Shown piece by piece: positions 5,299 through 63,101 of a DNA stretch of 64,000 nt. A model generated the notes under the pieces. That model ran no database searches, was not told the origin of the DNA, and saw only the letters and a program-made list of their open reading frames with translations. This DNA comes from Candidatus Parcubacteria bacterium (GTDB taxonomy: Bacteria > Patescibacteriota > Minisyncoccia > Phycocordibacterales > Zambryskibacteraceae): the NCBI GenBank assembly GCA_019661785.1, contig JAIFWP010000003.1, forward strand, positions 31,009 to 95,008. The letters are read 5' to 3'. Position numbers and translations under genes: made by a program. Within the stretch, counting starts at the first letter, position 1. Every line of letters begins with the position of its first letter.

Positions 5299-5932
5299 AT
5301 AAAACCAGTGCTAAGTGTTCGAGGATAAGCCTCGGCATGGCACCGGAGTCGCGGGCATAGGTGCGGAGTTCTAGGACCTTCTTCTGCATTTCAAGCGGGG
5401 CCCCATCGGCGCGGAGCTTGAGGAGGAGTGAGTCGAGGAATAAGGCCAAAGCACCGGCTCCCCTCTCTTCCTTCTCATCGGCGAACTTCTTGGCGAAGTC
5501 GATACGCTGCTTGAGAGTCTTCGTAAGAAATTTCTCCACCTCTTTGTTCTTGCCTAGTTCGCCTCCGACTCTAACTTGATGCAATCGTGACAGAAGCGTG
5601 GGCAGGAAGACGCTCGACTCCCTAGCCGAGATGAAGAAGTGGGTATTCGCTACTGGGTCCTCAAAGGTTTTGAGGAGCGCATTCTGCGCCTCGGAGGTGA
5701 ACTTGTTTGCATGTATGACGAAGACCTTCCGCGCCTTATCTCCTTTGCCAAAAGCCTTCTCTATAGCCCTGTCACTTAGCTCTCTCGCATCATCTACGCC
5801 AAAGACATCTTGAGAGATGACGAAGACATCCGGATTGCCGACAGGGCTAATGCCAGACTCATCAAAAACATCCTTGAGATACTCGTCTGCTTCATCTCGC
5901 TCACCTATTAGTAGATAGGCGTGATGCTGCAT
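5297..5932 (-). CDS. holB: DNA polymerase III delta-prime subunit (short form)
   Basis: 211 aa. Degenerate AAA+ clamp-loader motifs: HAYLLIG, VFVIHANKFTSEAQNALLKTFEDP, and SRL as sensor-1. Confidence 0.7.
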   Translation of the reverse strand: MQHHAYLLIGERDEADEYLKDVFDESGISPVGNPDVFVISQDVFGVDDARELSDRAIEKAFGKGDKARKVFVIHANKFTSEAQNALLKTFEDPVANTHFFISARESSVFLPTLLSRLHQVRVGGELGKNKEVEKFLTKTLKQRIDFAKKFADEKEERGAGALALFLDSLLLKLRADGAPLEMQKKVLELRTYARDSGAMPRLILEHLALVL

Positions 5933-14883: not shown

Positions 14884-15135
14884 ATTTATTTATTGTACTC
14901 TATGGCGCGCTTGGGAACAGGTTCTCCTCCACATCGTCAATGTCTTCCGGCAAGGAAGTTGGCGTATCCTCGGCCTCTCCAGGCCTTGGCAAATCCTGGT
15001 CGAGCTGTTTGTCGCCGTAGAGCTTCTCCGTATTCTTTGGAGAGACTATGGCATTGGCATCAACCTCCGGCTTGTCGTCTTCATTGTTCATCATATTTAA
15101 GACGAAGCGCCTCTGGCGTTATGACCATCACCAGT

Positions 15136-29672: not shown

Positions 29673-30204
29673 CAATACCGACCACAAAGTACGACAAGTA
29701 GTCCTTTATCTGCGGGAAAGCTTGTCCTAGGTAGTAGCCGAGGAGAGTTACGATAGTCGACCAGAGCAAGCTCGATATGAGGCTGTAACGGAGGAAACGG
29801 CTCATATTCATCCTTGCTACACCGGCTGCGATAGGCGCGAAGGTGCGTATGATGGGCACGAAGCGGCCAAGGATAATAGCGAGCGCGCCATGCTTATCGA
29901 AGAAGGCTTCAGTCCTCTGCATATGCTCCTCTTTAAGGATTCTCCGGAAGAGCGTGTAACGGCTCAGCCGCTCGATGTATACGCCAATGAAGTATCCTGC
30001 GACGCCGCCCAGGAACCCAGCTACAAATATGAGCGGTATAAGCAAGTATAAATTGAAGCCAACTGTGGCCGCTAGGAGACCCGCGGTAAAGAGGAGTGAG
30101 TCCCCCGGCAGAGCGAAGAAGATGCCCGACTCAAGGAAGACTATGATGAAAACACCGATATATCCGTAGGTCGTAAGGAGATGTGTGGGGTCAAAGAGTG
30201 ACAT
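29602..30204 (-). CDS. DedA family (SNARE-associated/TVP38) membrane protein
   Basis: DedA signature FLESGIFFALPGDSLLFTAG..ILGRFVPIIRTF. It overlaps miaA convergently by 71 nt. Confidence 0.8.
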   Translation of the reverse strand: MSLFDPTHLLTTYGYIGVFIIVFLESGIFFALPGDSLLFTAGLLAATVGFNLYLLIPLIFVAGFLGGVAGYFIGVYIERLSRYTLFRRILKEEHMQRTEAFFDKHGALAIILGRFVPIIRTFAPIAAGVARMNMSRFLRYSLISSLLWSTIVTLLGYYLGQAFPQIKDYLSYFVVGIVIVSLLPIALEWWRERSSRSRTK

Positions 30205-30351
30205 GGGTGATGAAGGAATCGGTCACAGGTCCTCGCGTACTGCGAGGCCTGCGACCCCGCCTCGCGCCGTCGCGCTCCGGCTTTCGATTCCTTATCGCCG
30301 CGCGCTGATGTTCCACTCATAAGCCGTTATAGGCTTCTTCGTGGATCATTG
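30205..30351 (-). repeat. tRNA-Trp-associated element: spacer, conserved core (GAAAGCCGGAGCGCGACGGCGCGAGGCGGGGUCGCAGG), hairpin, ACCUGUGACC, then a duplicated 3' end of tRNA-Trp
   Basis: Coordinates 30205-30227 repeat the last ~18 nt of tRNA-Trp (CGATTCCTTCATCACCCA versus the tRNA's CGATTCCTTCATCGCCCG). The core is shared with the elements at 62899-63014 and 40416-40503. Confidence 0.6.
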
Positions 30352-30422
30352 CGGGCGATGAAGGAATCGAACCCTCGCCAGCGGTTTTGGAGACCGCTGT
30401 TCTACCACTAAACTAATCGCCC
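30352..30422 (-). tRNA. tRNA-Trp (anticodon CCA)
   Basis: Acceptor GGGCGAT/ATCGCCC, anticodon loop CUCCAAA, discriminator G. Confidence 0.85.
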
Positions 30423-39096: not shown

Positions 39097-39585
39097 ATGG
39101 TAGAGAAACAATACTCATGCGTTATCTCATATCTGCCGCTAGAGAACGAGCCCGACTATACGCACACGGCTTTCCCGCTATCCATTGGTCCAAACTACTT
39201 GGAACTCTCTAGCGACAAAGGGAGCGACCCTTATGCATGGGCGGAAAAGTGCGTATCCACTTTTAGCAAAGACGTGCCTTGCGTGCTTGTGCCTGGTACC
39301 CGCTTCGACATGAGTGGCACTCGACACGGCAAAGGCGGTGGCTGGTATGACCGCTTCCTATCTAAAATACCTTCTCATTGGACTCGCATAGGCATCGCTC
39401 ATAAGCGTCAGCTCTCAGACCAGAAACTCCTAAGACAAGCATGGGACCAACCCGTAGACTTGTTAGCTATATATGATGGTTCATACTGGAGCTTGATCGA
39501 AACGCACGCACGCACGGATGTGCGAGATGCGAGAATCGAACTCGCGCCCGATGCTTGGGAAGCACCAGTTCTACCACTAAACTAA
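39097..39585 (+). CDS. 5-formyltetrahydrofolate cyclo-ligase family protein
   Basis: Signature GKGGGWYDR. The stop overlaps the 5' end of tRNA-Gly on the opposite strand by 9 nt. Confidence 0.65.
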
Positions 39586-39591
39586 TCTCGC
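39521..39591 (-). tRNA. tRNA-Gly (anticodon CCC)
   Basis: Acceptor GCGAGAT/ATCTCGC, anticodon loop UUCCCAA, T-loop TTCGATT. Confidence 0.8.
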
Positions 39592-39593
39592 AG

Positions 39594-39676
39594 TGCCCGG
39601 GGTGAGACTCGAACTCACAAGGCCTTGCGGCCAAAGGATTTTAAGTCCTTCGTGTATACCATTCCACCACCCGGGC
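39594..39676 (-). tRNA. tRNA-Leu (anticodon UAA), long variable arm
   Basis: Acceptor GCCCGGG/CCCGGGC, anticodon loop CUUAAAA, T-loop TTCGAGT. Confidence 0.8.
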
Positions 39677-39678
39677 AG

Positions 39679-39750
39679 AGGCCTAGGGCGGAATCGCACC
39701 GCCGTATAACTCTTTTGCAGAGAGTTGCCTTACTACTTGGCGACTAGGCC
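39679..39750 (-). tRNA. tRNA-Cys (anticodon GCA)
   Basis: Acceptor GGCCTAG/CTAGGCC, discriminator U, anticodon loop CUGCAAA. Confidence 0.75.
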
Positions 39751-40342: not shown

Positions 40343-40415
40343 GCACCCTTAGCTCAGCTGGTAGAGCAGATCCCTCTTAAGGATAAGGTCGTTGGTTCGA
40401 TCCCAACAGGGTGCA
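40343..40415 (+). tRNA. tRNA-Lys (anticodon CUU)
   Basis: Acceptor GCACCCT/AGGGTGC, anticodon loop CUCUUAA, T-loop TTCGATC. Confidence 0.8.
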
Positions 40416-40503
40416 CAAGTGCGGGGCACTTGTGCAAGCCGGAGGCCGACGGGCCGAGGCGGGGTCGCACAAATCCCGAGCACGGGATTATGTGTGACCA
40501 CAT
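40416..40503 (+). repeat. Third copy of the tRNA-associated conserved element, here filling the tRNA-Lys to tRNA-Leu spacer
   Basis: AAGCCGGAG-GCCGACGGGCC-GAGGCGGGGUCGCA-caaAUCCCGagcaCGGGAUua-UGUGUGACC. The core is conserved and both hairpins are maintained by compensatory changes relative to the other two copies. Confidence 0.55.
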
Positions 40504-40587
40504 GGGCGGGTGGTGAAATGGTAGACACGCCAGTTTTAGGAACTGGTTCCGCAAGGAGTGGAGGTTCAAGTCCTCTCCCGCCCACCA
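40504..40587 (+). tRNA. tRNA-Leu (anticodon UAG), CCA encoded
   Basis: Acceptor GGGCGGG/CCCGCCC-A-CCA, anticodon loop UUUAGGA, long variable arm. Confidence 0.85.
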
Positions 40588-62898: not shown

Positions 62899-63014
62899 AT
62901 TGGCGGAAGAGGTGAGATTTGGTCACAGGTCTCGGCTTGCTAGCCAAGCCTGCGACCCCGCCTCGCGCCGCCGCGCTCCGGCTTTCAAATCGTCCTCGCA
63001 AACGGGTTTTGCTG
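62899..63014 (-). repeat. tRNA-Ser-associated element: conserved core plus hairpin plus ACCUGUGACC plus a duplicated tRNA-Ser 3' end including CCA
   Basis: 62901-62923 = CAAATCTCACCTCTTCCGCCA repeats the last 18 nt of tRNA-Ser. The core GAAAGCCGGAGCGCGGCGGCGCGAGGCGGGGTCGCAGG is about 95% identical to the copy at 30205-30351. Confidence 0.6.
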
Positions 63015-63101
63015 CGGAAGAGGTGAGATTTGAACTCACGGTAAGGTTGCCCCTACGCTGGTTTTCGAAACCAGTGCCTTAAACCACTCAGCCACTCTTC
63101 C
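63015..63101 (-). tRNA. tRNA-Ser (anticodon CGA), long variable arm
   Basis: Acceptor GGAAGAG/CTCTTCC, anticodon loop UUCGAAA, T-loop TTCAAAT, discriminator G. Confidence 0.85.

Follow-up and report, generated by a model that had tools for sequence, protein, structure and literature searches.

The T-loop of transfer RNA (tRNA) and transfer-messenger RNA (tmRNA) genes is a classical hot spot of integration. In the elements that tyrosine integrases establish there, insertion takes place in the T-loop region, a working 3′ part is supplied to the gene and the native part is displaced as a repeat; tmRNA is used as a target too, and empty sites are found in relatives. These same features appear to recur in a short element that follows tRNA-Trp and tRNA-Ser in a 64,000-nucleotide stretch of DNA from a Candidatus Parcubacteria bacterium (assembly GCA_019661785.1, contig JAIFWP010000003.1, positions 31,009 to 95,008), the whole of which is referred to here as the window. 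However, the present element is gene-less and only 110–250 nt long, has one and the same core at 35 tRNA species, carries an arm complementary to its target, shows covariation of the RNA type and is absent from viral, phage and plasmid collections, in all of which it differs from the tyrosine-integrase elements.

Other described systems share part of this plan. The palindrome-associated transposable elements (PATEs) and miniature inverted-repeat transposable elements (MITEs) of the IS200/IS605 group and the attC cassettes of integrons are likewise short, non-coding and multi-copy and possess a conserved strand-specific fold, and in IS608 short base-paired "guide" segments help to set the insertion site. 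Unlike these, the element described here has no subterminal hairpin pair, fixed target tetranucleotide or R-box, its arms of 9–20 nt come from the target, it is flanked by a target repeat of about 18–20 nt, and no TnpA or IntI gene was seen with it. A structured scaffold joined to variable target-matching segments is reportedly also the principle of the IS110 bridge RNA and of the omega/reRNA guides of IscB and TnpB; the resemblance is one of analogy, and in contrast there is here no recombinase or nuclease gene, the scaffold measures only 63 nt, and the two variable segments pair together and do not lie in internal loops. Viral tRNA-like structures, bacterial YrlA and mascRNA likewise have a helix in which the 3′ strand of the acceptor/T-arm is copied, sometimes with CCA, but in the present element this strand faces a plain complement whose pairing extends to T-loop bases and the discriminator, no mimic of the T-loop/D-loop is present, and each copy is tied to the neighbouring tRNA. 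Group I introns in the tRNA genes of Patescibacteria are RNA elements without a protein gene of their own (PMC13011429). They occur in the same hosts, but they break up the gene at the anticodon loop and Rfam recognises them as group I ribozymes, whereas the element sits at T-loop positions 55/56, leaves the upstream tRNA intact and matches no intron model.

The reading favoured here, at a probability of roughly 0.45, is that of a non-autonomous insertion element which docks on the T-loop of tRNA and tmRNA genes by means of a structured core, in the form of RNA or single-stranded DNA, and of arms matched to the target. No description of it was found in the full-text literature searched, a coverage that leaves subscription journals outside.

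Anatomy of the element in the window

All elements are described in the orientation of the adjoining tRNA. An earlier note, made from the letters of this DNA alone, had placed a structured element behind tRNA-Trp, and it is present there as described. The copies at tRNA-Trp and tRNA-Ser are each composed of D1 (the 3′ part of the intact tRNA), a spacer, an arm complementary to that part (arm′), a conserved core and D2 (the second copy of the tRNA 3′ part):

30351..30422, minus strand: intact tRNA-Trp(CCA) (ARAGORN; Rfam tRNA, 70 bits; sequence)
30352 to 30369, minus strand: D1 of the Trp copy, the 3′ part of tRNA-Trp from T-loop C56 (30369) to the discriminator (30352)
30304..30350, minus strand: spacer hairpin of the Trp copy, 47 nt, CAAUGAUCCAC-GAAG-hairpin-AUGA-GUGGAACAUCAG
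30285..30303, minus strand: arm′ of the Trp copy (GCGCGGCGAUAAGGAAUCG), 19 nt, reverse complement of the tRNA-Trp 3′ part
30222..30284, minus strand: conserved core of the Trp copy, 63 nt, 95 bits to the core model
30248-30285, minus strand: core string GAAAGCCGGAGCGCGACGGCGCGAGGCGGGGTCGCAGG of the Trp copy, 38 nt
30204..30221, minus strand: D2 of the Trp copy, repeating C56 to the discriminator of tRNA-Trp with one G to A change
63014..63101, minus strand: intact tRNA-Ser(CGA), whose 3′ part is D1 of the Ser copy (ARAGORN; Rfam)
63000-63013, minus strand: short spacer of the Ser copy
62986-62999, minus strand: arm′ of the Ser copy (GCGAGGACGAUUUG)
62922..62985, minus strand: conserved core of the Ser copy, 94.8 bits
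62901..62921, minus strand: D2 of the Ser copy, an exact 18-nt repeat (62904-62921) followed by CCA

In the Trp copy, GAAAGCCGGAGCGCGACGGCGCGAGGCGGGGTCGCAGG is followed by a hairpin, then by ACCTGTGACC and finally by CGATTCCTTCATCACCCA (30221-30204), the last being the second tRNA-Trp 3′ end with a single G to A change that had been reported. The 6-bp hairpin after the core also stands, although its loop has the five nucleotides AGUAC (CCUCGC-AGUAC-GCGAGG) and not the four, AGUA, that were first read. The stretch that had been taken for a spacer does exist, but it is not inert, since it ends in arm′, 17–19 nt (30285-30303) that read as the tRNA 3′ end in reverse complement. The last base of this arm′ is a G that pairs with C56; the arm fits D1 (AUCGCC) better than the mutated D2 (AUCACC), and the sequence from C56 to arm′ folds into a single hairpin of −42.5 kcal/mol. 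As for the duplicate said to adjoin the start codon of DedA, it overlaps that codon, the final base of D2 being the A of the ATG (30204-30202). The copy behind tRNA-Ser is near-identical, as had been reported, with one mismatch to the Trp copy in the 38 nt of the core string and with the tRNA 3′ end duplicated, 19 nt of the tRNA recurring exactly; in this case CCA is present after D2, whereas D1, the copy in the gene, has none. The 38-mer core string gave zero matches in 100 of 100 shuffles of the sequence.

Fold, junction and target-matched arms

A core pattern search in one-genome-per-species contigs returned at least 120 loci, here given L numbers; of those listed 91 are real, and the remaining listed matches are chance occurrences in GC-rich coding DNA. 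The counts of distribution, tRNAs, repeats and CCA ends come from the matches listed and are thus minimum values for the whole family. Structure and covariation were assessed on an alignment of 64 copies. In this alignment P1 is formed by arm′ paired with the tRNA 3′ part, and the core continues with AAA, P2a (GCC/GGC), an internal loop (GGA/GA), P2b (4 bp, GNYG loop), GG and P3, a helix of about 15 bp with a bulged A, an invariant G.U pair and an AGCA loop, which ends in GUGAC and directly abuts C56. The Trp copy folds as a closed three-way junction with a 3′ tail (−57.4 kcal/mol, z = −6.9).

It was verified that 90.3% of the cells are paired against 73.0% after shuffling, that 356 cells are changed on both sides against 109, and that the covariation score was reached by none of 500 shuffles; controls with slid partners gave 35–43% of cells paired, and both-sided changes occur in 21 of the 31 base pairs. 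Near the junction, arm′ takes one of two forms, either Watson-Crick (GAUUCG/CGAAUC) or with tandem G.A (GAUGAG/CGAAUC), and the closing pair covaries as well, G:C56 becoming C:G in the hairpin-closed copies described below. The G.U pair (columns 68:97) is invariant in 64/64 copies and, because it would be a C.A mismatch on the other strand, the fold is assigned to the sense strand of the tRNA; the folded strand is one that acts as RNA or as single-stranded DNA. The conserved trailer RNA that had been offered as one explanation is therefore upheld as regards an RNA-type structure, by the covariation and the invariant G.U, but not as regards its supposed T-arm mimic, which proves to be a long helix in which a dedicated complementary arm pairs with the 3′ strand of the tRNA.

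At the gathering score, Rfam recognised only tRNA, tmRNA and rRNA in the window and 18 loci and held no family for the core, and at E<=10 three element regions gave only noise of 7–18 bits; the families without a match include hammerhead, twister, twister-sister, pistol, hatchet, HDV-like, group I/II introns, riboswitches and tRNA-like families. Compared by eye, the conserved positions of the core do not match those of hammerhead, twister, hairpin, group II domain V or k-turn, and neither the integron R-box (G|TT) nor the guanidine-II ACGR loops fit them.

A repeat of the tRNA 3′ part, running from C56 toward the 3′ end, flanks the insert in 51 loci. In 41 of these the exact-repeat pair begins precisely at C56 (..GGTT|CGA.. 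in the tRNA versus ..GTGAC|CGA.. after the core), and in the other 10 the left edge is blurred by a mismatch or small indel. The right edge is variable, lying mostly at the tRNA 3′ end plus 0–4 nt, and the overall repeat length goes from 5 to 85 nt: sometimes only 5–11 nt are repeated, and in four loci (L008, L032, L079, L105) the repeat covers 33–85 nt, through the terminator of the tRNA. D2 is shortened or decayed in about half of the copies, with the core intact.

In nearly all loci the sequence from C56 of the live tRNA through arm′ makes one long hairpin and, among the copies with unlike D1 and D2, arm′ is the better complement of D1 in 22 cases and of D2 in 7. Two types of spacer were found, a terminator-like hairpin (A-tract, GC-stem, U-tract) and a conserved CAAUGAUCCAC-type hairpin, the latter, seen in the Trp copy, being common to Ser/Trp elements elsewhere (L001, L040, L041, L066, L078, L098). 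In a "long" class, arm′ carries one more hairpin (CUGC loop), placed exactly at its boundary of acceptor and T-stem. In the hairpin-closed copies P1 is closed by a hairpin of its own (loop GAAUACUUGGA); these copies lie inside degenerate partial tRNA copies and are always preceded by GUU (6/6 seen), and in L082 this form is placed between the UU and the CGAUU of a tRNA-Glu-like T-loop. Some copies stand in tandem or are nested, and arrays of pseudo-tRNAs were also met (L071, L082, L033, L101, L105).

The arrays of degenerate partial tRNAs (L082 2389-2760, L033 2400-2700, and upstream of tRNA-Ser(GGA) in L019 and L011) contain the core, along with further small inserts, at the D-loop, anticodon loop and T-loop, and an intact copy of the same tRNA adjoins them. 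Structured cores unrelated to the present one are found in the corresponding position, with an arm complementary to the tRNA on one side and a repeat of the tRNA 3′ part on the other, in L101 (6120-6245), L022 (about 150-300) and L050 (upstream of the core at 5579-5689); one of them reads G|AACCGAGGGCUGACGAAG...GAGAGUGAC|C56 and another contains AAAACCUUCUCC...GGUGUACUGAyCCUGUAAGG. Such cores suggest a wider superfamily of T-loop-docked modules.

Distribution, neighbouring genes and empty sites

At least 86 tRNAs, of at least 35 anticodon species, have a core within 330 nt downstream on the same strand. The element also lies downstream of tmRNA (L068 2580-2726; L071 1151-1419, with two elements in tandem), where the arm is complementary to the tmRNA 3′ end. 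Copies are almost always next to a tRNA or tmRNA, a point that the earlier note had put forward for checking. Many loci of 8 kb hold two or three copies. Core divergence is 0.26 within genomes versus 0.34 between them, P3 is identical at tRNA-Gly and tRNA-Arg in L085, and in one metagenome-assembled genome (MAG) of Taylorbacteria the cores at two Ser tRNAs differ by 7%, all of which supports copying between sites. Hosts among the matches listed are Saccharibacteria, Paceibacterota/Parcubacteria groups, Berkelbacteria, WWE3 and three Elusimicrobia MAGs. Among MAG contigs errors of binning are possible, a reservation that applies to a "Bdellovibrionales" host and could touch the Elusimicrobia hosts; in the latter, which lie outside Patescibacteria, genuine copies with tRNA arms were observed (L008, L088, L105), and these could reflect horizontal spread, shared ancestry or mis-binning. 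A conserved tRNA-Arg(TCG) neighbourhood (L003, L073, L076, L089, L093, L099) carries the element in very different forms, with tRNA arms, with short non-tRNA arms or as the long class, which points to old residence or to repeated insertion at one locus.

In the window itself the element occupies 3 of the 12 tRNAs, and two further copies were recognised:

40412..40522, plus strand: third copy, between tRNA-Lys (40343-40416) and tRNA-Leu (40504-40587), 90.6 bits
47724..47829, plus strand: diverged fourth copy, 24.2 bits, E 8.5e-8

The third copy, at tRNA-Lys, has its core at 40435-40498, with compensatory changes in P2 and P3, and its closing helix is short and not tRNA-derived (5′ hairpin GCACAAGUGC-GGG-GCACUUGUG, 3′ CACAU). 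The fourth retains P2b and P3b, has a rebuilt junction and is closed by an 18-bp non-tRNA helix; its position, with a terminator before it and a convergent gene on either side, shows that membership of the family does not strictly require a tRNA. About 63 nt 3′ of tRNA-Gln and on the same strand (15040-15135, minus), a hairpin CGUCUU..AAGACG is directly followed by ACAAGCCGGAG, the first 11 nt of the core, with the remaining core absent; this fragment may be a truncated relic or a chance occurrence, a 9-mer being expected 0.8 times per window. The tRNA genes for Cys, Leu and Gly at 39520-39750 (minus), separated by 1-nt spacers, are all without the element.

The inserts of about 110–250 nt contain no open reading frame (ORF). 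The earlier note had named a tyrosine integrase as the possible agent and had proposed a search for its gene; none was found near the copies or in the window ORFs tested. More generally, no recombinase, transposase or reverse transcriptase was present beside eight copies without a nearby tRNA or among ten unannotated window ORFs, and all-against-all clustering of 599 ORFs from the 91 loci revealed no such enzyme as a recurrent neighbour. Recurrent neighbours are housekeeping genes only, namely IF-2 and, at tRNA-Arg(TCG), a block of genes for a CCA-adding-enzyme-like protein, a YraN-like endonuclease and a Xer-like recombinase, names that derive from sequence motifs; Xer-like genes were seen only in that one conserved neighbourhood. 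Among the 91 loci there was neither an autonomous relative nor a full-length parent of the element, and the core had 0 matches in 2.9 million viral contigs (IMG/VR), 50,697 phage records and 72,556 plasmids. As regards transcription, no terminators or promoters were predicted between the window tRNA-Trp or tRNA-Ser and the element, so that these tRNAs and their elements are probably co-transcribed; in many other loci the tRNA is separated from arm′ by an intrinsic terminator.

Empty sites, which had been put forward as a check, were found in relatives at both the tRNA-Trp and the tRNA-Ser site. Two relatives (L161, L162), in which L33 is 96% identical to that of the window, have the same order of rpmG, tRNA-Trp, DedA and miaA, but the end of tRNA-Trp directly meets the DedA ATG and the 148-nt insert is absent. 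This contiguity can be read in L161 at about 595-610 (..CGCCCGCATGTCG), and because of it tRNA 3′ processing would leave a near-leaderless mRNA in these relatives. In eleven more distant rpmG loci only about 85–100 nt are left after rpmG, and a core model search of the rpmG loci of 14 relatives gave no match. In a further relative (L175) tRNA-Glu and tRNA-Ser(CGA) follow the same order as in the window and the element is absent. DedA relatives in metagenome contigs were at best 45% identical and had no tRNA-Trp synteny, and an exact look-up of the DedA protein returned no record. Judging from the filled and empty tRNA-Trp and tRNA-Ser sites, the element is an insertion/deletion polymorphism.

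The alignment with the empty sites also shows that, at the Trp site, it is D2 that carries the native flank, the DedA ATG; in the window (30202-30222) the displaced tRNA end holds the same position relative to this ATG as in the relatives. In these loci, 26 of 104 tRNAs that lack the element encode CCA, which gives the background; the corresponding figures are 11 of 40 for D2 copies (p = 0.83 versus background) and 4 of 40 for D1 copies (p = 0.07). These frequencies suggest that D2 is the displaced native gene end and D1 a supplied replacement. Since the CCA rate of D2 equals that of native genes, no RNA origin of D2 is required, and the idea that D2 is a retro-copy of mature tRNA, which the CCA on certain D2 copies had prompted where the gene copy has none, was rejected. 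An origin of the Trp spacer as old flank folded by snap-back synthesis was also discarded, because this spacer is absent from the empty site and shared in the family; a snap-back origin is possible for spacers of the terminator type.

Mobile element or resident RNA

Presence or absence at orthologous sites and multiple dispersed copies, both generic marks of mobile elements, were found for this family, and mobility would account for its distribution. In the proposed scheme, the unit would comprise D1 from C56, the hairpin spacer (often a terminator), arm′ and the 63-nt core ending in GUGAC, and would be inserted between U55 and the native C56. With the unit in this place, the native 3′ part (D2) would be pushed downstream and be free to decay, and the tRNA gene would stay working with the replacement 3′ part (D1) placed before the displaced native end. 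The layout resembles the attL/attR of an integrative element that repairs its target tRNA, and the family of miniature inserts with attL/attR-like duplicated tRNA 3′ ends that the earlier note had envisaged is borne out. Specificity would then reside in nucleic acid and not in a site-tuned integrase, the D1:arm′ helix matching the target and the arms serving as guides, and the conserved junction would be the part recognised by a host or other machine or the seat of the element's own chemistry. The arms could be rewritten for a new tRNA by a nick at 55|56 and strand-displacement synthesis that switches to the displaced strand or, alternatively, by cleavage and ligation at the RNA level at GUGAC|C56. 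That the 63-nt junction is itself the active part of a gene-less mobile element, as a ribozyme or as a scaffold for host enzymes, and rebuilds both arms for each tRNA at U55|C56, is a possible but doubtful extension of this scheme.

Several observations weigh against an insertion element. The empty sites could be precise losses through the 18–20-nt direct repeat, and the repeats of 33–85 nt mean that a secondary tandem duplication is needed under an insertion model. An element that brings a matching D1 must rewrite D1 and arm′ for every tRNA, for which the mechanisms given above are proposals. Neither an enzyme of transposition or recombination nor an autonomous relative came to light at the loci, so that mobility is something we infer. 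Moreover, because the loci were collected by a 20-base core pattern, part of the invariance at those bases is a product of the search, whereas the covariation of P2b and P3 is independent of the pattern. Finally, the preservation of P3 by compensatory changes between orthologous copies (L073 and L107) and the identity of the junction nucleotides in Saccharibacteria, Paceibacteria and Elusimicrobia fit an RNA useful to the host at least as well. A MITE or PATE transposon was considered separately and rejected: the inverted arms differ at each site and copy the target, the repeat varies from 5 to 85 nt and no autonomous relative was found.

A host-useful cis-acting RNA of this sort, lodged in the tRNA trailer as a tRNA-like processing or quality-control module in which the repeats are part of the design, is rather unlikely but the most serious rival. 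It might punctuate the transcript as a minihelix offered to RNase P, RNase Z or the CCA-adding enzyme, or arm′ might be a switch competing for the tRNA 3′ end. Junction bases that stay invariant over phylum-level distances amid covariation and the compensatory change just mentioned would be expected of it, as would the probable co-transcription of the window tRNAs with their elements, and D2 at the DedA ATG lies where the tRNA 3′ end is in the empty-site relatives; furthermore, the hairpin at the acceptor/T-stem boundary in the long class gives arm′ the look of a tRNA 5′ half, and the peripheral domains vary as they do in functional RNAs. Nevertheless, occupancy is sporadic, the same tRNA being empty in close relatives, the terminator before arm′ in many loci would leave most tRNA transcripts without the module, D2 is often truncated behind an intact core, the tandem, nested and pseudo-tRNA-embedded copies look like insertion debris, and an independent design for 35 tRNA species would still require a copying mechanism. 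The truncation of D2 would equally destroy the minihelix on which a stand-alone small RNA gene would depend, in which arm′, core and D2 form a tRNA-like RNA that acts in trans, for instance as a decoy for a tRNA-binding factor, with an acceptor/T minihelix whose T-loop is replaced by the junction and which sometimes has a CCA end. The stability of the closed three-way junction with its 3′ tail in the Trp copy, the CCA with which about a quarter of D2 copies end, and the AT-rich, −10-like stretches noticed by eye before arm′ in many loci agree with such a gene, but it is a very unlikely one, given that arm′ follows D1 and not D2, that the CCA frequency of D2 is merely background and that no promoter was predicted ahead of the window copies.

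Another possibility, itself improbable, is that the element acts at the RNA level and that its core is a small ribozyme, cleaving and ligating or self-splicing, in effect a T-loop "intron" with its own mimic of the 3′ exon. Arm′ and the tRNA 3′ part would be the substrate helix and GUGAC|C56 the reactive site, with splicing optional, and the element would spread by inserting itself into tRNA transcripts through the reverse reaction, the products then being copied into DNA. The P3/P1 junction of zero length exactly at the repeat boundary suits this proposal, as does the fact that D1 and D2 are exchangeable as partners of arm′. One fold also exists in two connectivities, with P1 open or closed by the GAAUACUUGGA hairpin, and natural self-cleaving ribozymes vary in connectivity likewise; the hairpin-closed form in the tRNA-Glu-like T-loop of L082 is a case in point. 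Patescibacteria are in addition rich in self-splicing tRNA introns, but group II introns are reported to be absent from them (PMC13011429). Besides, no Rfam ribozyme family is similar even at E<=10, no reverse transcriptase was seen near the copies, and the CCA frequencies favour D2 as a native gene end and not as a copy of mature tRNA.

This native D2 with a supplied D1 is, on the other hand, what a classical integrase footprint would give, in which the copies are deletion remnants of phages or islands at tRNAs and the core is the arm region flanking attP. Empty sites exist, the duplicated tRNA 3′ part begins in the T-loop and tmRNA is a target as well, and a 2002 survey of tRNA and tmRNA integration sites by Williams reportedly names the duplication from the T-loop and the use of tmRNA as hallmarks of integrase attL/attR. 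However, an integrase family has one or few attB sites and the same core is found here at 35 tRNA species and tmRNA, the arms are complementary to each individual target, covariation is of the RNA type with a strand-specific G.U, the viral, phage and plasmid collections have no match, no integrase lies in or beside the copies, Xer-like genes being confined to one tRNA-Arg neighbourhood, and no full-length parent occurs among the 91 loci. A tyrosine integrase as the agent is thus not sustained, and such a footprint is the most improbable of the explanations weighed; the insertion element preferred here is att-type integration in manner, but not a classical integrase scar.

If this reading is true, the element likely represents an abundant structured-RNA family, new to Rfam and to the literature searched, that is present across the candidate phyla radiation, whose genomes are reduced and should tolerate junk poorly. 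For annotation, its partial tRNA duplicates and pseudo-tRNA arrays can mislead both the identification of tRNA genes and the prediction of prophage att sites. The tRNA and tmRNA T-loop, a classical hot spot for integration, would be used without an integrase and with arms that match 35 tRNAs, which points either to insertion directed by a guide or to a level of handling of tRNA transcripts that is so far unrecognised. Should the gene-less junction also prove to be the active part, the smallest bacterial genomes would harbour a natural insertion system that is guided by nucleic acid and can be reprogrammed.

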